From contig JAQBEH010000022.1 in the NCBI GenBank assembly GCA_032124015.1, forward strand, positions 10,585-74,584: 64,000 nt of DNA. Direction: 5' to 3'. This document shows, piece after piece, positions 23,434 through 34,759 of this stretch. Positions within the stretch are counted from its first letter, which is position 1, and each line of letters opens with the position of its first letter. The notes beneath the pieces were generated by a model. That model was not told the DNA's origin. It ran no database searches and saw only the letters and a list, made by a program, of their open reading frames with translations. The stretch comes from Acidobacteriota bacterium (GTDB lineage: Bacteria; Acidobacteriota; Polarisedimenticolia; Polarisedimenticolales; DASRJG01). The position numbers and the translations under genes were made by a program.

Positions 23434-25533
23434 ATGCGCCGATGGATACCCGCAATCATGACGCTCGCTGTGCTGGGGATTTCCGTCCTACGGGCGGCCG
23501 ACACCGAAACCCCGGTTGCTCATCCGGACGCCGAAGAGCGCGTCGAGGTCACGGCCACCAAGTTCGAGGACGACCCTGACAAGATCCCGCAGTCGATGAC
23601 CGTCGTTTCGGGCCAGGATCTCAGGGATCGTGGGGCGATGGATTTCCGCTCGGCCCTGGCGCTCGTGGCCGGAGTCGACATCGCCCCGGGCGGAGACGGC
23701 GGGCCGGCCTCGGCGGTCCCCGAAATGTGGGGCTTCAGGGAGCAGGACGCGTACCTGTTGATCGTCGACGGCGTCCCTTGGGGCGGCGTGTTCAACCCGC
23801 AGGTGTCGACCGTGCGCCTGAACGATATCGAGAGGATCGAGATCCTGCGCGGGGCGGCGCCGGTCATGTACGGGACCACCTCGTTCGTCGGAGTGATCCA
23901 GGTGATCCGCTACCGCCCCGGGTCCGGCGCGCCCGGCATCCAGGCGGCCGCGGGCTCGTACGGTAGTGCGGCGCTCGCGTCGTCGTTCGACCTCGGAACG
24001 TGGGCCGGCTTCGGCTCCCGTCTCACGCTCGACGCCGAGCAGCGGGATTACCCCGACCCGCGCACCGACTTCGAGCGCGGGCATGTTCTCTGGCGCAACT
24101 TCCGCCCGCTCGGTGGCGGTGGTGAAGTCTATTTCAACCTCGAAGGCACGTGGCTCAACCAGTCCCCGTCGAGCCCGGTCCCACGCACGGGAACCGTCCT
24201 CGCGCCGAACGTCCCGCAGAACGCCAATTACAACCCCGGCGGTGCCGAAATCGATCCCCGCCGGAACACGGTGAACGGCGGCTTCACCATCCCGAAGTCC
24301 TACGGCATCTGGAGCGGGCTCGTGTCCTACGCGCGTTCGTCCACCGACGCCCTGCGCGGATTCATCACCGATCCGACCGGGCCGGTCTTCCCCGCAATCG
24401 GCGAGCGTTCGACTACAACCCTCGACGAGGTGTAGGCCGACGCCCACATCGAGCTCACGAACGTCGCGAAGACTCAAATTGTGGTCGGTGTGGATTCCCA
24501 GTACGGCAAAGGCGACCTAGACGGTGGCGATTTCGACTACACGATCAACGCCGACGGCTCGGACCCGCCCGACGGCAACTCGATTCCGCTGAACATCGAC
24601 GCGAATATCATCGACACTCGAAATTTCGGAGGGCTGTACGGATTCGTCGCCTGGACGCCCGACTGGAGGTGGCGGCTCGAGGGGGGGCTGCGCCTCAATC
24701 TCACCGACGAGAGCCGCGACACCACGGTCCAGGACTTCGTGCCGGCGACGTTAGACCAGGGAACCGACCACGCCAGCGAGTCGAGGCCGAGCGGAAGCGC
24801 GGGTGTGACGTTCACCGCGTGGCAACGCGGGGCCGACAATGTCCGGATCTTCGCCGACTACCGGAAGACGTACAAGCCCGCCGCCGTGGATTTCGGCCTG
24901 AACGCCGAAGCCAGAATCCTAGACCCCGAGACCTCGGAGAGCATCGAGCTGGGCGTGCGCACGACGCTCCTCGAGCAGAGACTAGAGCTTGAGATGTCGG
25001 TCTTCAACATGGAGCTCCAAAATCTCGTGGTCCCCACGACCGTGAATGGCCTGCCCGCGCTCGAAAACGCCGGCGCCGAGCAGTTCAAGGGGATCGAGCT
25101 CGAAGCGACCGGGCGCCTGCCGCACGACATCGTGGTGCGGGCGGCGGGGAGCTACCACGACGCAACGTTCCTCGATTACGTTCGGGACTTCGACGGCGTG
25201 CCGACCCAGCTCGAAGGGAAACGCCAAGAGATGACCCCGATCTGGCTGGCCGGGGCCGGCATCGTCTACGCGCCTGCCAAGGGGTTCATCGCCCACGCGG
25301 AGGCGTCGTTCACCGGCTCGCGCTATCTCAACAAACGGAACACGGCGCTCGCCGCCCAGTTCACGACGTGGGGGATGGGCGTCGGCTGGCGCGGGGACCG
25401 CTTCACGATCCGGCTCGACGGCACGAATCTCGGCGACGAGCGCCCTCCGGTTTCCGAGAGCGAGCTCGCCGATGCGTCCTACTACCTTCTCGAGGCCCGC
25501 CGGATCTGGCTGTCGTTCGACTGGTTGTTCTGA
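23434..25533 (+). pseudogene. TonB-dependent receptor interrupted by one in-frame TAG (24433..24435)
   Basis: Signal peptide and plug domain (IPQSMTVVSGQDL, IERIEILRGAAPVMYG) are in ORF 23434..24435. The barrel, ending ..SFDWLF, is in ORF 24481..25533. Both ORFs are in the same frame, and the intervening codons are open apart from the TAG. Confidence 0.8.
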
Positions 25534-25562
25534 AAAAGTGGAACTCCCCTACTTCTCTAGAA
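25533..25562. repeat. Degenerate REP-like element between convergent TBDR and OMP genes
   Basis: The sequence is AAAAAGTGGAACTCCCCTACTTCTCTAGAA. Its reverse complement contains GTAGGGGAGTTCC. Confidence 0.4.
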
Positions 25563-27134
25563 CCTGTAAATCACGCCCGCATAGACCTGGTCCTGATTCT
25601 CGAAGGTGCCGGAATCACGTTCCAGTGAGAGCAGGATGGACCAGCGCCGGCCTATCGCGGCATCCATGTCGAGCCCGTACCAACTCAGGTGGCGATCCAG
25701 AGCGGGGTCCACGTTCAGTTCGTCGAGGCGACCCCCGGCAAATTCGAAATGAACGCCGGAGGAGACGTTCACACCAATGGATAGTGCGTAGAGGTCACCA
25801 CTGCTCTCCAGGTTCGAAAAGTGGGTTCCCCGCAAGCGGACTCCGAAGTTTGCGCGGGTGAAGCGCCCAGCGCCGACGGTCAACGAATAGGAGTTCGCTG
25901 GTCCCAGCACGCCGCCGTCGATCTGGCGCCCCTCGATCCCGATGTCCACGTGGCGACCGATGCGGAACGACGCGCCGCCCCAGGCCCCTTGCCGGGTCGA
26001 TCTGTCGAAGATGACGAGCGGATCCACGTAATCCCAGTATTGGTAGACGTTTTCGCGGCTGTCGTATCCAACGTTCAGATCCAGCCATTTCGCGGCGTGG
26101 ACCCTCAACGAGATGAAGGTCCCGGTGAGTTCGATCGGATCAAGGCCGGCGACGTCGACCTTCCAGCCGCTGTTGAAGTCCACCTCTTGGTTCGCATACA
26201 TCGACAGCCACTTCGAGTCGTAGATCGCCTGGAGGAAGAGATACTGTCGGCTGACGACGCTCGTGGCGTACGCGCCGACGAGGCCGGTGGTGAACGCCCA
26301 GCGTGACGTCGCTCCGGGGCGGTTGTGAACGTTGAAGTAACCCGCAAACTCCCTGACGTCCGTCGAGAAGCTCAAATCGTTGAGGTCCGGTTGCAAGCCC
26401 ACTAGGACACCGCCGCCCCAGCGTGGACCGTCGTGGGCGAACAGCACGCCGTCGAAAATCTCGACACCGTCGAGCATGGGGGCATACTGGCGTCCGAACG
26501 TCAGGCGCTCTTCCGGTGTGAAGCGGTACGAGACCGAGGCGCTGTACGTGCGCACCCTCTGCGTCGCTTGGTCTCCCCCCGAGAAAGTCGAATACGACGC
26601 TCGGCGCGCGCGGATATTGACGTCGAGATCCACCGGCGAGCCATTCAGTCCGTAGCCGGCGAGGCGCACGTTTGTCGCGGGTTCGCTGTACCCCCTGTCG
26701 TTTCCGCTGCGATCGATGATGCCGAGGTAACCGAGTCCGACAGTGCCATGGAGGCCGGCTCCCCGGGAGGCCGCCTTGGGAGACCCGGCCAAAGGCGGAG
26801 CGGCCGCAACCGGCGGGGTGCTCGGCGAATAACGCACCGTGTCGCCGACCCTGAGAGTCGTGGTCGACTCGACGATCGCGCAGGATACCCGGTGGCTCGT
26901 GACGTAGGTGACCTTGAGCGTCGCCACGTCGCTACCGTCGCGCACCGCCGTGAGCTCGTCGCCTTCCTGTAGTCCTTCGTCCTGGCCGGCGTCGACGTAG
27001 ACCGAAGTCGCGGCCACGTAGGTGATGTGCGCGATCGCCGGCTCAGGCTGAGCCGGCGGCGGCTCCGCGGCGAAGGCGAGCGCGGCCGAGACCAACGACG
27101 AGACGACGACAAGGCGTCGTGAGACGCGACTCAC
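25557..27134 (-). CDS. Outer-membrane beta-barrel protein with N-terminal soluble domain (porin component candidate)
   Basis: GTG 27134 overlaps the upstream stop (GTGA). Signal peptide RRLVVVSSLVSAALAFAAEP, a long stretch of alternating beta-strand pattern, and the aromatic terminus ..YAGVIYRF are present. Confidence 0.7.
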   Translation of the reverse strand: MSRVSRRLVVVSSLVSAALAFAAEPPPAQPEPAIAHITYVAATSVYVDAGQDEGLQEGDELTAVRDGSDVATLKVTYVTSHRVSCAIVESTTTLRVGDTVRYSPSTPPVAAAPPLAGSPKAASRGAGLHGTVGLGYLGIIDRSGNDRGYSEPATNVRLAGYGLNGSPVDLDVNIRARRASYSTFSGGDQATQRVRTYSASVSYRFTPEERLTFGRQYAPMLDGVEIFDGVLFAHDGPRWGGGVLVGLQPDLNDLSFSTDVREFAGYFNVHNRPGATSRWAFTTGLVGAYATSVVSRQYLFLQAIYDSKWLSMYANQEVDFNSGWKVDVAGLDPIELTGTFISLRVHAAKWLDLNVGYDSRENVYQYWDYVDPLVIFDRSTRQGAWGGASFRIGRHVDIGIEGRQIDGGVLGPANSYSLTVGAGRFTRANFGVRLRGTHFSNLESSGDLYALSIGVNVSSGVHFEFAGGRLDELNVDPALDRHLSWYGLDMDAAIGRRWSILLSLERDSGTFENQDQVYAGVIYRF

Positions 27135-27760
27135 GGCCTTCCCCCATAGAACGACACGGGATAGTGACACTCGACGCAATTCCGCGAGTACCCTCCCGCC
27201 ACGTGATTCGGGTTCCGGGTCGCGTAGTAGTCCTGCAGGTGACATGCGACGCACTCGGTCGGGGTGTTGACGTACCTCCGATTCGTATGCAGCACATGGC
27301 AGGCCTCACAATCGGCCGCGGCGTGCGCACCCACCAGGGGGAAGCGCGTCAACTGGTGGGCTCGGCCCATGTGCGCGCGGTCGATGAAGCTGCGCGGCGT
27401 GTGGCAGCGCGCACAGTCGTCGCCGAGCTCGCCGCGATGGATGTCCTGGTGGCACGACGTACAACTGCTGCCGACTTCTTTGAAGACGAGGTTGAGGTGG
27501 CAGGCGCGGCACGCGGTTTGAACGTGGGCTCCTTCCAGAGGAAACCGAAATCGCCCGTGATCGAACGATCGGGCGATCTTGGCCGGCTTCCAGCCTTCGG
27601 GTCCATGGCAGGTCGCGCACGTGTCCTTGAGAGGCCCATGCGGATTGTCGGCGTTCCCTACGTCGACGGCGACGCCGGCCTCGTCGGCGGCACGAACGAC
27701 GGCGCCCGCCCCAAGAAAAAAGAGGGCCGCCACTGCGAGCGCCTTCGTCATGTTCGTCAT
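27131..27760 (-). CDS. Heptahaem c-type cytochrome, periplasmic
   Basis: Seven CXXCH motifs: CATCH, CRACH, CTSCH, CARCH, CEACH, CVACH, CVECH. A signal peptide (MTKALAVAALFFLGAGAVVRA) is present. The ATG lies 5 nt after the upstream stop. Confidence 0.85.
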   Translation of the reverse strand: MTNMTKALAVAALFFLGAGAVVRAADEAGVAVDVGNADNPHGPLKDTCATCHGPEGWKPAKIARSFDHGRFRFPLEGAHVQTACRACHLNLVFKEVGSSCTSCHQDIHRGELGDDCARCHTPRSFIDRAHMGRAHQLTRFPLVGAHAAADCEACHVLHTNRRYVNTPTECVACHLQDYYATRNPNHVAGGYSRNCVECHYPVSFYGGRP

Positions 27761-27765
27761 GTCCG

Positions 27766-29835
27766 TCAGTCCGAAGATAGGGGCCGCGTGAGCGCGGGTC
27801 CACCGGGGATATGCTTTCCGTGACAGTCCTCGCAAGTGTGAGGCACTGGGCGATAGACGACGATCGCCCGCCCTTCCTTAGGTCGAGGCGCCGCATGGCA
27901 CTTCGCGCAGGGGACCTTCGCATGAGCGCCCTTCAGGGAGAACGTCGCGTCGACGTCGTGATCGAACTTCGACGCCGGTCGGAACGCAACCTCCCCGTGG
28001 CACGAGGCGCACTGACCGGCCTCGCCGCGCCGTGCAAATTGGTCGCCGTGAGGCGTTTCGTGGCACGCTTCGCAGTTCGTGCCTTTGGTCGTGAATACCA
28101 TCGGGGGCGCAGGCCCGTGGGCGAGCACCAGGGACGAGCGAGCCGGCCCAGGCACCTGTTTCGACTCGACGTGACAGGCATCGCACGAAATCGCCCGATG
28201 CGCCCCAACGAGCGCGTAGTTGAAGTAGAGATGCGAGGCCACATCCACGATCACCGGCCGGAAGGCGGCGAAGTTGTGACACGCTTCGCAGTTGTTCTTT
28301 TTGGGGCGCAACCCCGTCGGGCCGAACCGGCCGTCGTGAGCGTCGAAGTGGCACGAGGCGCACTCCGTCTCCCTGACGACGAGCAGGACGCCAGCGCGGC
28401 CGAGTTTATCGACCGGAGGCAGGGGAGGCAGTCCCTTGCGAGCCGGCCCGTGGCACGCGGCGCATTCGATCTTCGCGTGGCGTCCCTCGATCGGGAATTT
28501 CAGCTTCGCGTGCTCGGCCACGCCGAACAGGCTCGGCTTCCAACCGGCGACGTTGTGGCAGGGCTCGCAGGCCGCGCCTCCCGGCCGCGAGGCGAGCTGG
28601 CCGCCATGGTCGTCCCGATGGCAGTCGAGACAGCGCGAATACTTCGGCCGGAGAAGCACCCCCGCCGATCCCAAGGACCCCGCCGCGACGCCAGGAGGAT
28701 TCTTGAGGTGACACTTCTCGCAGGCGACGGCACGGTGACGGCCCTCGAGCGGATACGCCGATTTCTGGTGCTGCTCCACCGTGTACGCGTTGACGCGAAA
28801 GCCCTCGACCCGATGGCAGGCCGCGCAATCGACGACGCGGCCCTCAATCGTCGCCCGTCCGGCGTGGGCATCCTTGTGACACGACCCGCACGATGAGAAG
28901 ACAGGTTTCTTCCCCCACGCCTTGGCCGGATCGTGGCACTGCGCGCACTTGAGCGCGGTGTGTTTTCCGCGCAACGGGTAGCGGGTCTTGTCGTGCTCGA
29001 AGCTCGCCGCCGTCGCCGCCGTCACGGCGAGAAAGGACTCGGTTACGTGGCACTTCGCGCAGCCAGGCCCGAGTCGGCCGGCGTGAGGGTCGACGTGGCA
29101 GGGTGTGCACTCGGCGTGGGGGATCGGCTTGTACAACGGCTTCGGTCGGCCCTCCGCGTCCTTCGGGAGGTCGAGGTTCGCCACCATGTGGCACTTCTCG
29201 CACTTGACCGGAATGTGCTTTCCCGTCAGCGGGTAGCTCGTCTTGCCGTGGTCGAAATTGGAAGGCGGCTTCCACGCTACAACGCTGTGGCATGATTGGC
29301 ATTCTGGCCCGAGCGATCCGCGGTGGATGTCTTCGTGGCACGACTTGCACTCGCGCTCGAGCCCGATCCATCCTTCCGAAGGGTTCTTCCGCTTGGACAG
29401 TTTTGCGGCGGGCGAGACCACGTACTTCGCCGTGTGACAGTCTCGGCACTTGGTCGTCTGGTGCTTGCCCTCGAGCGGCCACCCAGCTGTCTTGTGGTCG
29501 AACTTATCCGCGCTTCCCTCCGGCCAAGCCACCATCTCGAAGTCGCGTCCCGCGTGGTCCGGATGACAGGTCGCGCACTCTTCGCCCTTCTTGGTCGCGT
29601 GCAATCCGCGGTCATGCTGGACCAGCCAACCGATGTCCTTGTGGCATTCGACGCACCGGTCGTCCATGGAGCCTTTCGCCTTGCCGTGGCAGGCGAAACA
29701 CTGAAGGGGCGTGTCGATCTCCTGATGGGGGTGAGCAAGCGGGCCGGGGGACATTTGGGCGTAGGCCGGCCCCGCGAGCGAGCCGACGGCGAGCGCGATG
29801 GCGAAGGCGCTCGATCTGACCGTCAATGGAACCAC
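27766..29835 (-). CDS. Multihaem c-type cytochrome with 23 CXXCH motifs
   Basis: I counted 23 CXXCH motifs in 689 aa, arranged as repeated triads (..PLxGxH-x4-CxxCH .. CxxCHxDxHxG .. CxxCH). GTG 29835 overlaps the upstream gene end. The signal peptide SSAFAIALAVGSLAGPAYA has no lipobox Cys. Confidence 0.88.
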   Translation of the reverse strand: MVPLTVRSSAFAIALAVGSLAGPAYAQMSPGPLAHPHQEIDTPLQCFACHGKAKGSMDDRCVECHKDIGWLVQHDRGLHATKKGEECATCHPDHAGRDFEMVAWPEGSADKFDHKTAGWPLEGKHQTTKCRDCHTAKYVVSPAAKLSKRKNPSEGWIGLERECKSCHEDIHRGSLGPECQSCHSVVAWKPPSNFDHGKTSYPLTGKHIPVKCEKCHMVANLDLPKDAEGRPKPLYKPIPHAECTPCHVDPHAGRLGPGCAKCHVTESFLAVTAATAASFEHDKTRYPLRGKHTALKCAQCHDPAKAWGKKPVFSSCGSCHKDAHAGRATIEGRVVDCAACHRVEGFRVNAYTVEQHQKSAYPLEGRHRAVACEKCHLKNPPGVAAGSLGSAGVLLRPKYSRCLDCHRDDHGGQLASRPGGAACEPCHNVAGWKPSLFGVAEHAKLKFPIEGRHAKIECAACHGPARKGLPPLPPVDKLGRAGVLLVVRETECASCHFDAHDGRFGPTGLRPKKNNCEACHNFAAFRPVIVDVASHLYFNYALVGAHRAISCDACHVESKQVPGPARSSLVLAHGPAPPMVFTTKGTNCEACHETPHGDQFARRGEAGQCASCHGEVAFRPASKFDHDVDATFSLKGAHAKVPCAKCHAAPRPKEGRAIVVYRPVPHTCEDCHGKHIPGGPALTRPLSSD

Positions 29836-30812
29836 GTGACACCGAGAACGATCGCGGTCCCCACGTGAAGCACGACGGCGACGAGCGCAACGATGGCCAT
29901 GGGCTTGTGCGCGACGTGCCAATAGCGGAGGAGTCGGTGCGTAACGTCGAGCATACGAGCTTGCTGCATCAGCGCGATCTCGCTCCGCATGAGACCGTGC
30001 AGTCTGGCGCGCGCCGCGCGATCGACCCGTCGTTCGGCGGTCGAAGCGCCTTTCCAACTCCACTGCAATTGTCGGGAGGTCTTCCACCGCCGCGCGTCGT
30101 CCGCGATCATGACCGCGAAAGCTTTCAGCGCGTTCATGTCGGGTGAGATCGTGGGAGACGCTCCAGAGAGCAGGGCGTGTTCGAGGAGCTCGCCGTCGAT
30201 CCCTGTGGCGTCGACGATTTGTTGAAGCACAGCCCGACGCTGGGTCTCGAGCTGGTCGCGCGTCAGCTCGACACCGTTTCTGCTACGCGGGATGCGCACG
30301 TAGATGTACCGTCCGACGACTCCGCTCAGCCACGCGACCATCATCGCGCCGTAGCCGAGCCCGATGAGGCCGGAGAAGTGCCACGCCGCGTGGAGCGTCG
30401 CGAGAAACGGAACGCAGAGGCCTGCTATCACGTGGACGTCGAGCCAGATCGCACGTGATGCGCCGAACGCAAGCCACCGGAATTTCTTTTGAAGCGGGTA
30501 GATCCACAAGAAGCTGAACAGGGCAAAGGCGGCGATTCCAGCGGCTTGTCCGATGAGGCCTGACGGTCGGAACCACGGATGCAGCGGGCTCCGCAAACGA
30601 TCGACCGCGGGCAACACGAAATACGGCAGGCCAGCAAGATTGGCCGAGACGACCAAGCCCAGGACGACGAGGAGGAAGCCCAGCCCGACGCGCGACCTCC
30701 TGGACGCCGCAATCTCCGCCTTCTGGGGGCGCTTGGCCGGCCTAGGCGCCGGTGCCGGCTCCGGCGCGCGCCGCTTTGCAGCGTGGTTCTCGAGCACGGC
30801 TTGTGAGCTCAT
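29823..30812 (-). CDS. Integral membrane protein with two H-x13-H helices (dihaem b-type cytochrome candidate)
   Basis: 329 aa with about 5 TM helices. One helix reads HVIAGLCVPFLATLH and another HKPMAIVALVAVVLH. A loop of about 110 aa precedes the last helix. Confidence 0.6.
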   Translation of the reverse strand: MSSQAVLENHAAKRRAPEPAPAPRPAKRPQKAEIAASRRSRVGLGFLLVVLGLVVSANLAGLPYFVLPAVDRLRSPLHPWFRPSGLIGQAAGIAAFALFSFLWIYPLQKKFRWLAFGASRAIWLDVHVIAGLCVPFLATLHAAWHFSGLIGLGYGAMMVAWLSGVVGRYIYVRIPRSRNGVELTRDQLETQRRAVLQQIVDATGIDGELLEHALLSGASPTISPDMNALKAFAVMIADDARRWKTSRQLQWSWKGASTAERRVDRAARARLHGLMRSEIALMQQARMLDVTHRLLRYWHVAHKPMAIVALVAVVLHVGTAIVLGVTWFH

Positions 30813-31068
30813 GGTTTCCCCGCCGGGAACCGAGCGAAAATGGTGCCAGCAAGGGACGACCCACCCGACGCCCGCGGATCCTTCCGTGTCCTTCGCGACG
30901 GCCCTGCGACGTAATCCTGGTTTCAGATTTGGTAATAGCGCGAGGACCTGATGGAGTGAAGCCCGAAGAGGAACGACGGGGGCGTGGCCCAGGGGTTGCT
31001 TGGTTCCTGGCGGGCACTCAATTCCCAGACAGAGCGCAGCAGTTCGGCTCGGAGAACGTAATACTTAC

Positions 31069-32364
31069 ATGCTGACCACCGTACTTTTCCTGACGACGAC
31101 CCTTCTTGTTTGCCTCGTGCACGTGCGCAAGCACGCGAAGCTCGAGCGAAGATCGCTCGAGTTGCGTGAGGAGAATGAAAAGGCCGGGCTCAACGAACCG
31201 TTCTCGCTTCATCCCCTCATCGACGAGAACTTATGTATCGGCTGCGGCTCCTGCGTTACGGCCTGCCCCGAGCAGGCGGTCCTTGGCCTCATCCAGGGGA
31301 AAGCGGTTCTTGTCGAGGCCTCGCAATGCATCGGCCACGGAGCCTGCAAGACCGCGTGCCCCACGAGGGCGATCCAACTCGTGTTCGGTACGGAAGAGCG
31401 TGGCGTCGACATCCCCAACGTCCAGTCGAACTTCGAGACGAACGTCCCGGGCATCTTCATCGCGGGTGAGCTCGGCGGCATGGGGCTGATCGGCAACGCC
31501 GTCGAGCAGGGGCGGCAGGCGATTGAGTCGATTCGCAAGCTGTCCGGGATGGGCCAAGGGAACCGGTTCGACGTCGTCATCGTCGGGGCCGGCCCGAGCG
31601 GATTCTCGGCATCTCTTGCGGCGCTGCACCACAAGCTGCGCGTCTTGACGATCGAGCAGGACACCCTCGGCGGGACCATCGCCCACTTCCCGCGCGGGAA
31701 GATCGTCATGACGCGACCCATGGAACTTCCCATCGTCGGGAAGGTGAGATTCTCCGAGACGACGAAGGAGAAGATCATCGACTTTTGGAAGAAGGTCGAG
31801 CGCGAAACCGGCGTCAAGATCAACTACAACGAGCGCCTGGAGACCATCGCCGTCGACGGGAACGGTTTCACCGTCCGCACTACGCGAGGTGAATACCGTG
31901 CCCGAGCCATACTTCTGGCCATTGGCCGCCGGGGCACCCCCCGCAAGCTCGGCGTCCCCGGCGAGGAACTCGACAAGGTCGTCTACCGGTTGATCGACCC
32001 CGAGCAGTATCGAGGTCAGCATGTGCTTGTCGTGGGCGGCGGCGACAGCGCCCTCGAGGCGGCGGCCGCCATAGCGGCGCAGCCAGGCTCGACCGTCACC
32101 CTCTCCTACCGAGAGAAAGCGTTCGTCCGGGCCAAGGTAACGAACCGCAAAAAGGTCGAGACGGCTCTGTTCGAAAAACGCCTGCGCGTGCTGTACGAGT
32201 CGAAAGTGCAGGTGGTGCACAAGAAATCGGTAGCTGTCGAGCAGAACGGCCAGGTGATCCTCGTCCCGAACGATGCGGTGATCGTCTGCGCGGGCGGCCT
32301 CCTCCCGACTCCGTTCCTCAAGGAAATTGGCATCGAGGTCGAAACGAAGCACGGCACCGCCTAG
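31069..32364 (+). CDS. Membrane-anchored 2x[Fe-S] ferredoxin-domain / FAD-NAD(P) oxidoreductase (thioredoxin-reductase-like)
   Basis: N-terminal TM helix MLTTVLFLTTTLLVCLVHV followed by RKHAK. Cluster motifs CIGCGSCVTACP and CIGHGACKTACP. Dinucleotide folds VVIVGAGPSG and VLVVGGGDSALE. Confidence 0.8.
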   Translation: MLTTVLFLTTTLLVCLVHVRKHAKLERRSLELREENEKAGLNEPFSLHPLIDENLCIGCGSCVTACPEQAVLGLIQGKAVLVEASQCIGHGACKTACPTRAIQLVFGTEERGVDIPNVQSNFETNVPGIFIAGELGGMGLIGNAVEQGRQAIESIRKLSGMGQGNRFDVVIVGAGPSGFSASLAALHHKLRVLTIEQDTLGGTIAHFPRGKIVMTRPMELPIVGKVRFSETTKEKIIDFWKKVERETGVKINYNERLETIAVDGNGFTVRTTRGEYRARAILLAIGRRGTPRKLGVPGEELDKVVYRLIDPEQYRGQHVLVVGGGDSALEAAAAIAAQPGSTVTLSYREKAFVRAKVTNRKKVETALFEKRLRVLYESKVQVVHKKSVAVEQNGQVILVPNDAVIVCAGGLLPTPFLKEIGIEVETKHGTA

Positions 32365-32404: not shown

Positions 32405-34639
32405 TCAGTTCGTTTCCGGTGCTCCGTTGTCGATCCAACTCGTGATGATGGCCGGCTCCCCGGACAGCAGGTACTGTCGCATGGTCCCACCCGTCTGAGT
32501 CGTCGACCGGACCTTCGCACGATTGGCGAAGACCTGTGCGTAGGTCAGCAGGGTTGGGCTCTGGCCCCCGGTGGTGTGGCAGCCGCTCTGCGTGCAGCCG
32601 AGCTTGGTTCCGTTAGGCTGATTCGGCCGCGCGGTGATCATCGCCTTCGTCGTGTTCAGGTAGGTCACACGCGTTGTGACCGTCACCGAATCCTGCGCGC
32701 TCCCCTGGGGGCTGCCGTTGTCGATGACGGTGAGCGTGAAGGTGTAAGTCGCCGTTGCGTTCACCGGCGCTACAAAGCTCGGTGTCGCGGTGTTCGCACC
32801 CGACAGCGTCACCGTCGCTCCGGCGGTCTGGCTCCACTGATACGAGCTGATCGATCCATCGGGATCCGACGAGGCGCCGCCGTTGAGTAGGACCGTGACG
32901 CCCGGGTCGAGGTTGATCTGGTCGGGGCCGGCGTTCGCGAGCGGAGGCTGATTCGTCGCGACACTCACGGTGATGACGACCGTCGATGACCCGGTGGCTC
33001 CATCGTTGTCGGTGACGGTCAGAGCCGCCGTGTAGCTGCCGGCCGATGCATAGGTGTGCGTCGGGTTCTGAACGGTCGACGTGCCCCCGTCACCGAACGC
33101 CCACGCGTACGAGGCGATCGTGCCGTCCGTATCGGTGCCCGTCCCCGTGAACGTCACGAGCAACGGGGCGGTACCGGACGTCGGCGTGGCCGACGCCGAG
33201 GCGCTGGGCGGCAGGTTGCTGACGGCGGAGATGGCGACCGTCGACGAGCCGGTCGTGCCGCCGTTGTCGGTGACCGTCAGGGTGGCCGTGTAGTTGCCCG
33301 GCGACGCGAAGGTGTGCGAGGGGCTCTGCGCGCTCGAGGTCCCGCCGTCGCCGAAGGTCCACGCGTAGGAGGCGATGGTCCCGTCGGAGTCCGTCCCTGA
33401 ACCGGTAAACGCCACGACGAGCGGGGCTTTGCCGGAGGTCGGCGCGGCCGTGGCACTCGCCGTCGGAGGCTGGTTCCCGGCGGAACTCGCGGAAATGGCG
33501 ACCGACGATGAGCCCGTGGCTCCGTTATTGTCGGTGACCGTGAGCGTTGCGTTGTAGTTCCCCGCGGTCACATACGTGTGCGAGGGGCTGGCCACGGTGG
33601 ACGTGCCGCCGTCGCCGAAGGTCCAGGCATAAGACGCGATTGTTCCGTCGGAGTCGGACCCGGAGCCGGTGAAGACCACGGCCAGAGGCGCCAACCCGGA
33701 CGCGGGCGTTGCGGAGGCGCTTGCGATCGGAGGCTGGTTCGCAACGGCCGAGATCTGGACCGTTGCATTTCCCGTCGCGCCGTTGTTGTCGGTGACCGTG
33801 AGCGTCGCGTTGTAGTTGCCGGCCGTCTGATACGTGTGCGAGGGGTTCCTCGTGTTCGATGTGCCGCCGTCGCCGAAGGTCCAGGCGTAGGACGCGATCG
33901 TCCCATCGGAGTCCGTCCCGTTCCCGGTGAACGCCACCACGAGCGGCGCCTTCCCACTGGTGGGTGTGGCCGAAGCGCTCGCGGTCGGGGGCTGATTGGA
34001 CCCGGCCGTGATCGCGACCGTCGTCGAGCCTGTAGCGCCACCGTTATCGGTCACCGTGAGCGTGGCCGTGAAGTTCCCGCTGGTCTGATACGTGTGCGTG
34101 GGGTTCTGTTGCGTCGACGCGCCGCCGTCTCCGAACATCCAGGCGTAAGACGCGATCGTCCCGTTGGAATCGGTCCCGCTTCCCGTGAACGTCACGAGGA
34201 GCGGCGCCAATCCCGAGATCGGAGTCGCCGAAGCTGTCGCGGTCGGGGGCGGGTTTGCCGGAACGCTGACCGCGACCTCCACGGCCGCCTGACTCGTCGC
34301 GCCGGCGTTATCCGTGACTTCGAGCATGGCGATGAAGGTGCCAGCCGTGGCGTACAGGTGGGTCGGGTTGGCCTCCGACGAGGTGGCGCCGTCACCGAAC
34401 GTCCACGCGTAGGCGGCGATCGATCCGTCGGGGTCGGTCGCCGAGCCGGCGAAGGCCACGGTCAGCGGGGCCGGCCCCGAGGTCGGCGTAGCCGTCGCCA
34501 GGGTCACAGGCGCTTGGTTCGCTCTGTCGAGCGTGACGTCCTTACAGGCTAGAAAGGTCGCGAGAGCAAGAATGACGCCTGCGGCGAGCACGCGAGCGAA
34601 CGGCCACCCGTCCGCCCGGGATCCTCTCGTCTCTTTCAT
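32405..34639 (-). CDS. Lipoprotein with six tandem PKD domains, one ANAGPDQ-type PKD-like domain and a C-terminal CX4CH cytochrome-like domain
   Basis: ATG 34639 follows GGAGGA. Lipobox LATFLAC. Repeats of the type APLxVxFTGxGTDxDGTIASYAWTFGDGGTS..TLTVTDNxGATG. The tail contains CTQSGCH and a downstream GGTM. Confidence 0.85.
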   Translation of the reverse strand: MKETRGSRADGWPFARVLAAGVILALATFLACKDVTLDRANQAPVTLATATPTSGPAPLTVAFAGSATDPDGSIAAYAWTFGDGATSSEANPTHLYATAGTFIAMLEVTDNAGATSQAAVEVAVSVPANPPPTATASATPISGLAPLLVTFTGSGTDSNGTIASYAWMFGDGGASTQQNPTHTYQTSGNFTATLTVTDNGGATGSTTVAITAGSNQPPTASASATPTSGKAPLVVAFTGNGTDSDGTIASYAWTFGDGGTSNTRNPSHTYQTAGNYNATLTVTDNNGATGNATVQISAVANQPPIASASATPASGLAPLAVVFTGSGSDSDGTIASYAWTFGDGGTSTVASPSHTYVTAGNYNATLTVTDNNGATGSSSVAISASSAGNQPPTASATAAPTSGKAPLVVAFTGSGTDSDGTIASYAWTFGDGGTSSAQSPSHTFASPGNYTATLTVTDNGGTTGSSTVAISAVSNLPPSASASATPTSGTAPLLVTFTGTGTDTDGTIASYAWAFGDGGTSTVQNPTHTYASAGSYTAALTVTDNDGATGSSTVVITVSVATNQPPLANAGPDQINLDPGVTVLLNGGASSDPDGSISSYQWSQTAGATVTLSGANTATPSFVAPVNATATYTFTLTVIDNGSPQGSAQDSVTVTTRVTYLNTTKAMITARPNQPNGTKLGCTQSGCHTTGGQSPTLLTYAQVFANRAKVRSTTQTGGTMRQYLLSGEPAIITSWIDNGAPETN
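32947..34516 (-). repeat. Tandem coding repeats of about 260 bp (PKD units)
   Basis: Six consecutive units of 86-88 aa share long identical peptide runs (IASYAWTFGDGGTS, ATLTVTDN). Confidence 0.8.
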
Positions 34640-34759
34640 CCGTCCATCCTCCGGCGCCCGTAGCCGACCGTAGGAGAACAGAGCAAGCGCAGTGCCACGA
34701 CGTTGGTCGGACACTTCGAGTCATGCCGTTTTACGATTTCGTGGCGAATTCCGCCTACA

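Follow-up and report, generated by a model that had tools for sequence, protein, structure and literature searches.

A predicted di-haem b inner-membrane protein is encoded next to an iron-sulfur flavoprotein in a PCC3-like porin-cytochrome cluster

The window analyzed here, a stretch of 64,000 nucleotides from an Acidobacteriota bacterium (assembly GCA_032124015.1, contig JAQBEH010000022.1, positions 10,585 to 74,584), contains an operon for multihaem c-type cytochromes (MHCs) that starts with the gene of an inner-membrane protein (IMP; 29823 to 30812, minus strand). The open reading frame (ORF) translates to 329 aa with five transmembrane (TM) helices, and IMP is predicted to be a di-haem b-type protein which very probably conducts electrons through the inner membrane to the MHCs of the periplasm. 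A flavoprotein with an N-terminal TM anchor, a 2x[4Fe-4S] ferredoxin domain and an FAD and NAD(P) binding part of thioredoxin reductase (TrxR)/YpdA fold is encoded divergently to it (31069 to 32364, plus strand). The reading favored here, with somewhat better than even confidence, is that IMP would act as the inner-membrane electron gate of a conduit like that of the porin-cytochrome clusters named PCC3. Electrons would be fed from NAD(P)H via FAD and iron-sulfur (FeS) clusters to two haems b, and would move outward and independently of quinones.

A pattern search identified exactly two H-x13-H pairs in IMP, HVIAGLCVPFLATLH (H127-H141) and HKPMAIVALVAVVLH (H302-H316). Both fall in Kyte-Doolittle hydrophobic segments, at about residues 120-147 and 299-329. 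In the AlphaFold model (pLDDT, the predicted local distance difference test score, of 79.8), the first pair is located in helix 120-141 and the second in helix 258-322. The five hydrophobic segments of IMP match the five long helices of the model, which comprise residues 30-65, 86-110, 120-141, 148-171 and 258-322. Each pair belongs to a longer motif. TM3 carries W123-x3-H127-x13-H141 (30390 to 30446, minus strand), the proposed ligands of an inner and an outer haem, and a motif search combined with conservation identified W298-(H299)-x-x-H302-x13-H316 on TM5 (29865 to 29921, minus strand) as the second proposed haem ligand pair. On TM4, S163-G-V-V-G167 forms an SGxxG motif (30312 to 30326, minus strand). 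Because two bare H-x13-H pairs arise in ∼5% of the shuffles of this His-rich protein, this motif alone is weak evidence; W-x3-H-x13-H occurred twice in 7e-5 of the IMP shuffles.

Conservation, analyzed at the level of aligned sequences, is the decisive evidence for the His-pair observation. Two sets were used, 36 close homologues and a broader set of 52 sequences down to ∼22% identity. H127, H141, H302 and H316 are invariant in 36 of 36 close homologues and likewise across the 52 sequences. Only nine columns of the 52-sequence alignment are invariant (G92, Y105, H127, H141, G164, G167, W298, H302, and H316), and the same nine are invariant in an alignment of a distant subfamily. W123 is invariant or nearly so, and H299 and S163 are each at least 90% conserved. 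Both W-x3-H-x13-H motifs were found in all 36 close and in 50 of the 52 broader relatives, and SGxxG in all 36 and in 51 of the 52, respectively.

The positively charged residues of IMP are unevenly distributed, with 10 Lys/Arg in residues 1-42, four in the TM2-TM3 loop, and 21 in the loop of residues 171-296; the short TM3-TM4 loop and the C-terminus have no such residue. This distribution fits a five-TM topology with the N-terminus inside, in which both His helices run from the inside to the outside. Such an arrangement would place one His of TM3 and one of TM5 near each membrane face. The TM4-TM5 loop (29925 to 30302, minus strand) is ∼125 aa long and contains helices in the AlphaFold model at residues 185-203, 207-216, 228-252, and from 258 onward. 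R173-I-P-R176, G180, D239, R242, L281, Q283, and L288 are conserved in it among the close homologues, and the loop is a candidate docking surface for the flavoprotein.

The initial annotation, made from the sequence alone, had described two His pairs in hydrophobic helices and a basic N-terminus in the first gene of a cytochrome operon, all of which could be recovered here. It had also described a cytoplasmic loop of about 110 aa; the loop is present and rich in Lys/Arg, but its length is ∼125 aa. The same annotation had staked its proposal of two haems b on the conservation of the four His and on their location in the membrane. The four residues proved invariant, and all of them lie within membrane helices of matching orientation and not outside the membrane. 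Together with matches of relatives to di-haem b families in Pfam and a tightly coupled operon, this supports the predicted transfer of electrons across the membrane by two haems b.

The IMP of the window was previously considered not assignable to a named family, a statement that no longer holds. A “conserved inner membrane protein” of the porin-cytochrome clusters PCC3 and PCC4 was described as having a length of ∼300 aa, five TM helices, an SGxxG motif in TM4, and one W-x3-H-x13-H motif each in TM3 and TM5 (He et al., 2017; Front Microbiol 8:1584, PMC5566968). For this protein two b haems, an FRD-like fold, and a role as quinone-active cytochrome b were proposed, and the PCC3 and PCC4 proteins were reported to lack significant overall similarity to each other (PMC5566968). 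Besides the IMP, PCC3 clusters encode a porin, a periplasmic MHC with 21-27 haems, and another MHC whose haem number varies; Slit_0867-0870 and Slit_1446-1449 of Sideroxydans ES-1 are reference clusters. In later papers PCC3 was still functionally unverified, and a 2026 preprint on Ferrigenium reported a similar trio of a multihaem cytochrome, an unannotated five-TM protein and a [4Fe-4S] protein, which was left unexplained.

The window IMP carries the complete PCC3/PCC4 signature, with 329 aa, five TM helices, SGVVG, and both WxxxHx13H motifs, and the cluster has the make-up of PCC3, with a 23-haem and a 7-haem cytochrome and a 22-strand barrel. Moreover, the gene order of IMP, periplasmic MHC, second MHC and porin agrees with the haem counts of the MHC genes in the Sideroxydans clusters. 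Judged from this match to the published signature and from its make-up, the cluster represents a conduit of PCC3-like type in phyla new to it, with an invariably linked NAD(P)H-type FeS-flavoprotein as an addition. The hosts found here are Gemmatimonadota, Acidobacteriota, and lineages of the FCB group, whereas the published PCC3 clusters are from Proteobacteria, and the cluster type of the window is accompanied by a flavoprotein with Fer4 and FAD/NAD(P) domains, whereas the published description of PCC3 is without one. Unlike its PCC3 counterparts, the second cytochrome of the window has 7 haems only. The type of IMP was thus already predicted in 2017, and what is new is its constant flavoprotein neighbor; a literature search retrieved no description of a flavoprotein pairing or a quinone-independent route for PCC3-type clusters.

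Neighboring genes were counted in 87 related loci (L001-L087). A homologue of the flavoprotein adjoins IMP in 83 of these, in 41 cases divergently and in 40 as the next gene downstream on the same strand; the remaining four loci are cut off on the flank concerned. The intergenic distance between the two genes is often just a few bases. The pairing persists at 25-30% IMP identity, as could be observed in unclassified metagenome-assembled genomes (MAGs), Ignavibacteriaceae, a long metagenome contig, and Bacteroidota. In the window the two genes are separated by a divergent intergenic region of 256 bp (30813 to 31068, according to the ORF coordinates), which is common to the IMP operon and the flavoprotein gene. 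A sigma-70-like consensus was not found in this region, and a regulatory role of it is conjectural.

In the flavoprotein, the TM helix is followed by basic residues and the Fer4 domain comes directly after the anchor; matches to Fer4 families and to Pyr_redox_3 (1.3e-39) define its domains. In an alignment of 73 partners, CxxCxxCxxxCP and CxxHxxCxxxCP are invariant, and GxGxxG and GGGDSA are conserved. The second ferredoxin motif, CxxHxxCxxxCP, is located at residues 87-97, and 72 of the 73 homologues have its His (His90). This implies a conserved [4Fe-4S] cluster with three Cys and one His as ligands, by analogy with the distal cluster that is exposed at the surface of [NiFe]-hydrogenases. 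Among solved structures, YpdA/Bdr, thioredoxin reductases, and TrxR-type ferredoxin-NADP+ reductases come closest to the flavoprotein. Since no conserved Cys is found in the flavin domain among the 73 aligned partners and Ser stands in place of the catalytic Cys of YpdA, the partner does not look like a disulfide reductase, and a role as bacillithiol or thioredoxin disulfide reductase is ruled out. From its domains, the protein looks like a membrane-tethered fusion of a ferredoxin-NAD(P)+ reductase (FNR) and a ferredoxin. It also appears to be circularly permuted. The FAD-binding segment TNVPGIFIAGE is located at residues ∼120-140, where it follows the Fer4 domain and precedes the first Rossmann fold, and is aligned by HMMER to residues 281-298 of YpdA, whereas this segment is normally found at the C-terminal end of TrxR/YpdA-type proteins.

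A word-indexed search identified 209 close homologues of IMP, none of which has a Pfam annotation and of which the few named ones belong to Gemmatimonadales. An exhaustive profile search with the IMP family yielded 2793 representative clusters at E < 0.001. In a scan of a genome collection, close relatives were found to be encoded in 239 species-level genomes. The 80 best loci listed come mostly from Gemmatimonadota, the others from Acidobacteriota, Eisenbacteria, Krumholzibacteriota and a few further lineages, with MAGs throughout, and the nearest genome locus (66% identity) is in a MAG labeled Actinomycetes. The distant subfamily comprises at least 7197 proteins, and its few named members are from Ignavibacteria and Bacteroidota.

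A complete module was also observed in a cultured member of the Bacteroidota, Emticicia oligotrophica DSM 17448, on plasmid pEMTOL02 (NC_018749.1, 78197-89995). The genes are ordered there as ccsA, IMP (WP_015031196.1), a “NAD(P)-binding protein” (the flavoprotein, WP_015031197.1), two “cytochrome c3 family” proteins, and a hypothetical protein of 538 aa.

Shorter distant relatives of IMP, which retain both H-x13-H pairs, were identified on plasmids of Alteromonas, Legionella, Bradyrhizobium, Methylocystis, and Methylophaga (L089-L092 and L094). These directly follow a reductase with FAD_binding_6, NAD_binding_1 and Fer2 domains that is non-homologous to the flavoprotein of the window. In four of the five (not in Methylocystis) a small cytochrome c is encoded directly after the IMP relative, and this cytochrome is c3-type where checked. 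Because two unrelated NAD(P)H/FeS modules thus occupy the same position, the membrane protein is taken to be fed from the cytoplasm, and this is the strongest argument for such a route.

The plasmid-borne reductase, an FNR-type FAD/NAD/2Fe-2S protein, has a His-rich periplasmic N-terminus. Three of the five plasmid modules adjoin copper or heavy-metal genes (multicopper oxidase, P-type ATPase, DUF2933), and the one of Alteromonas adjoins hydrogenase genes. The plasmid mini-module may provide the periplasm with reducing power for the handling of metals.

Within the operon the genes for IMP, the 23-haem cytochrome, the 7-haem cytochrome, and the outer-membrane barrel follow each other on the minus strand. 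The TGA stop codon of IMP (29825-29823) overlaps the 23-haem cytochrome gene, which starts with TTG at 29826. Gaps of 6 bp separate the stop codon of the 23-haem cytochrome gene from the 7-haem cytochrome gene, and this from the gene of the 522-aa barrel protein. The 23-haem cytochrome (27766 to 29826, minus strand), with a signal peptide, 23 CxxCH motifs, and Cytochrome_C7 and c3 repeats, is the putative periplasmic wire, and homologues with a median identity of 48% were found in 82 loci. In most related loci carrying cytochrome ORFs, the first cytochrome after IMP and the flavoprotein has 23 or 20 haems.

The 7-haem cytochrome (27131 to 27760, minus strand; signal peptide, 7 CxxCH) corresponds to the conserved N-terminal module of a second, variable cytochrome, and a homologous segment is present in 77 of the 87 loci. 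This second cytochrome contains 10-61 CxxCH motifs in related loci, and the one of the window, with 7, is the shortest seen. For the 522-aa protein (25557 to 27125, minus strand) no Pfam match was obtained. Its AlphaFold model (pLDDT 73.5) shows a small N-terminal beta domain and a beta-barrel of 22 strands between residues 126 and 521, and the protein ends on YRF. The top Foldseek matches, with E about 1e-10, are PapC/FimD usher pores, AlgE, and porins. It is a putative conduit porin of the outer membrane with homologues in 51 of the 87 loci.

The assignment of IMP to a protein superfamily is based on its relatives. When the 52 relatives were scanned singly, DUF4405, Ferric_reduct, and Ni_hydr_CYTB were the only Pfam families matched by more than two members. 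DUF4405 (PF14358) was matched by 32 of the 52, with a best E of 5.7e-6, and not by the window protein. Sub-threshold matches were obtained to Ferric_reduct (PF01794) in 21 of the 52 (best E 1.5e-4) and to Ni_hydr_CYTB (PF01292) in 16 of the 52 (best E 1.1e-4), and PepSY_TM was matched by two. One further relative has a precomputed faint match to PF01794, and some short distant relatives are named “iron reductase” at NCBI. No individually scanned member reached the gathering score of DUF4405, the closest being P0200 with 23.8 versus 26.7 bits. All four are bis-His haem b membrane families, and they belong to one Pfam clan. For a purified DUF4405 protein, binding of haem b was shown (Huang et al., 2024; PMC11334425). 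It is proposed that IMP belongs to the FRD/DUF4405/cytochrome b561 superfamily of two-haem cytochromes b.

In the proposed mechanism, TM3 and TM5 would be parallel and run from the cytoplasmic to the periplasmic face with one His close to either face. The ligands of a haem b on the cytoplasmic side would be H127 and H302, and those of a haem b on the periplasmic side H141 and H316, with ∼20 Å between the two haems. Electrons would enter from the membrane-anchored cytoplasmic flavoprotein, a TrxR-type protein like a ferredoxin-NAD(P)+ reductase with a 2x[4Fe-4S] domain. They would pass from NAD(P)H via FAD and the two [4Fe-4S] clusters to the haem b of H127/H302 and then to that of H141/H316. 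Electrons probably leave the FeS relay at the His-ligated cluster. In hydrogenase small subunits, a His-ligated distal [4Fe-4S] cluster forms the relay exit and faces a cytochrome b. On the outer side, electrons would be handed to the 23-haem periplasmic cytochrome, from there to the 7-haem cytochrome in the 22-strand barrel and to an extracellular acceptor. The quinone pool would be bypassed, as in NADPH oxidase and yeast ferric reductase. Outward flow is favored because it would be downhill in redox potential and along the membrane potential.

This arrangement resembles NOX/FRE proteins and MsrQ (PF01794), in which bis-His pairs with a spacing of 13 residues are found on TM3 and TM5 and two b haems are stacked, as is predicted for IMP. 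With NOX/FRE, IMP would also share a cytoplasmic NAD(P)H flavoprotein as electron source and delivery to the outside, and with MsrQ the W-x3-H on the second His helix, although the hhalign comparison was not significant. However, IMP has five helices instead of the six of FRD proteins and a cytoplasmic insertion of 125 aa before TM5. Its partner, with a TrxR fold and two [4Fe-4S] clusters, is a polypeptide of its own and not a dehydrogenase domain of FNR fold, and its proposed acceptor is a multihaem cytochrome, whereas FRD proteins deliver to O2, Fe(III), or MsrP. DUF4405, the Pfam family most often matched among the relatives, is similar in its four central His, but has six TM helices and a link to ApbE flavinylation, whereas the context of IMP consists of multihaem cytochromes and the FeS-flavoprotein.

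In Tmc/Hmc of sulfate reducers, FdnGHI, and [NiFe]-hydrogenase-cytochrome b complexes, a cytoplasmic or peripheral FeS protein is connected through a membrane cytochrome b to redox partners in the periplasm. The layout proposed here is similar, and the putative His-ligated [4Fe-4S] cluster recalls the distal cluster of hydrogenases. The cytochromes b of these systems are of the NarI/HdrE or FdnI/HyaC types with other His spacings, and to our knowledge none of the systems has a TrxR-fold NAD(P) flavoprotein or a link to an outer-membrane porin.

Several points weigh against the proposed NAD(P)H-fed route. It would be electrogenic and would, like NOX, dissipate the membrane potential, which suggests reductant disposal or extracellular reduction rather than energy conservation. 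Gene adjacency is no proof of physical or electron-transfer contact, and the five helices of IMP differ from the six of FRD and DUF4405. Pfam and NCBIfam scans of the window IMP gave no model above threshold, and the match to Ferric_reduct scored 12.1 bits against a gathering score of 28 (E = 0.21). Whether searched with the IMP sequence or with the family profile, the PDB sequences yielded only coiled-coil noise from the cytoplasmic loop. Foldseek with the full AlphaFold model retrieved only F-BAR and other long-helix proteins at E > 0.6, and this search is uninformative because the long TM5 helix dominates it. When the family profile was compared by hhalign with the single sequences of E. 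coli MsrQ and YodB, which are too weak as targets, the probability was 0.3%. Two apparent fusions of IMP, ferredoxin, and flavoprotein, P0149 (863 aa) and P0136, were rejected as artefacts of frameshifts or gene calling and offer no Rosetta-stone evidence. Their long middle parts are rich in Arg, Pro, and Gly, as is typical for the out-of-frame translation of DNA with high GC content, and since they are out of frame the two proteins count as evidence for adjacency only. Finally, the published descriptions of proteobacterial PCC3 do not list a flavoprotein and assume quinone coupling.

Quinone coupling is indeed the alternative that survives best, even if it is considered unlikely. IMP would then oxidize quinol or reduce quinone and be the equivalent of CymA, ImcH, or CbcL, with the flavoprotein being accessory or unrelated. 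This corresponds to the published working model for the PCC3/PCC4 proteins (PMC5566968), would allow better energy conservation than feeding directly from NAD(P)H, and is consistent with the sub-threshold matches of 16 of the 52 relatives to Ni_hydr_CYTB, a quinone-reactive cytochrome b family. However, the commonest matches are to DUF4405 and Ferric_reduct, families that are fed by flavins or NAD(P)H and not by quinol, the flavoprotein gene adjoins IMP in every locus with intact flanks, and in distant relatives the gene of an unrelated NAD(P)H/FeS reductase is found in that position. Because of this pairing with NAD(P)H-type FeS-flavoproteins, including a different module in the distant relatives, quinol entry is doubtful and entry from the cytoplasm as in NOX/FRE is indicated.

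The same pairing bears on the role of a stand-in for CymA, ImcH, or CbcL, which the initial annotation had suggested for IMP. These proteins of Shewanella and Geobacter hold the same position in the pathway, as the inner-membrane entry of extracellular electron transfer. They carry c-type haems (CbcL b and c) and draw on the quinone pool, whereas IMP is paired with a cytoplasmic flavoprotein and has neither CxxCH nor CxnCH motifs, nor an NCBIfam match to the NapC/NirT (CymA), ImcH, or CbcL families. With a membrane-anchored NAD(P)H-type FeS-flavoprotein as constant neighbor, and a different NAD(P)H/FeS flavoprotein next to distant relatives, the suggested role becomes doubtful, and the comparison is probably wrong in mechanism.

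The reverse direction is improbable. Electrons from an extracellular donor (Fe(II), minerals, or a cathode) would in this case pass through the barrel and the cytochromes to the haems b and via the flavoprotein to NAD(P)+. The cofactor chain is reversible in principle, and PCC3 was first proposed as an uptake route in iron oxidizers, but the PCC3 clusters of Sideroxydans ES-1 were published to be down-regulated on Fe(II). Entry of electrons would oppose the membrane potential and, from general bioenergetics, would be several hundred mV uphill from Fe(II)-type donors to NAD(P)+. Moreover, the Gemmatimonadota, Acidobacteriota, Ignavibacteria, and Bacteroidota that host the clusters are mostly organotrophs. 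Least probable of all is a non-redox membrane scaffold or cytochrome assembly factor using the His for metal binding, haem handling, or structure, for which the lack of a model at curated threshold and the Ferrigenium preprint, where a similar five-TM neighbor of a nonahaem cytochrome and a [4Fe-4S] protein was considered a possible scaffold, could be cited, but against which stand the four His, which have the exact spacing of 13 residues on two parallel helices, a hallmark of bis-His di-haem bundles, and rank among the best conserved residues of a highly divergent family, and the haem b of the related DUF4405 protein (PMC11334425).

The proposal of an NAD(P)H-fed gate can be extended, tentatively and with slightly less than even confidence, to the whole family. 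IMP and the FeS-flavoprotein would together form a split, NOX-like NAD(P)H:cytochrome oxidoreductase that feeds the conduit and bypasses quinones. This would be the missing entry point of PCC3-like clusters and would occur widely among phyla of soils and sediments (Gemmatimonadota, Acidobacteriota, Ignavibacteria, Bacteroidota, and others), with the plasmid mini-version giving periplasmic reducing power in metal-resistance islands.

Further features were observed around the cluster. The GC content at third codon positions is 0.78-0.81 in the four operon genes, 0.83 in the flavoprotein gene and 0.84-0.89 in the neighbors; the lower value of the cluster is a mild hint at horizontal acquisition. 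A gene for a TonB-dependent receptor (Plug and barrel; 23434-25533, plus strand) is split by an in-frame TAG at 24433-24435, representing a pseudogene or a sequencing error. A role of the cluster in iron uptake, as might be derived from this receptor, is ruled out by the in-frame stop and the absence of a counterpart in any related locus. The flavoprotein gene is adjoined by a gene for a 769-aa protein with seven PKD domains (32405-34714, minus strand). Its unannotated C-terminal region contains CTQSGCH (C-x4-CH), and a similar sequence was found in only three related loci.

All well-studied chains of extracellular electron transfer begin at a quinol dehydrogenase. If the quinone-coupled reading holds, the IMP of the window is one more member of the predicted PCC3/PCC4 family. 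Emticicia oligotrophica DSM 17448, as a cultured carrier, makes the question directly testable. If the NAD(P)H-fed route is true, diderm bacteria would be able to export reducing power independently of quinones, and five genes would constitute a compact NAD(P)H-to-outside module for bioelectrochemical engineering. It would also change how the potential for metal and humic reduction is read from the genomes of abundant soil phyla.

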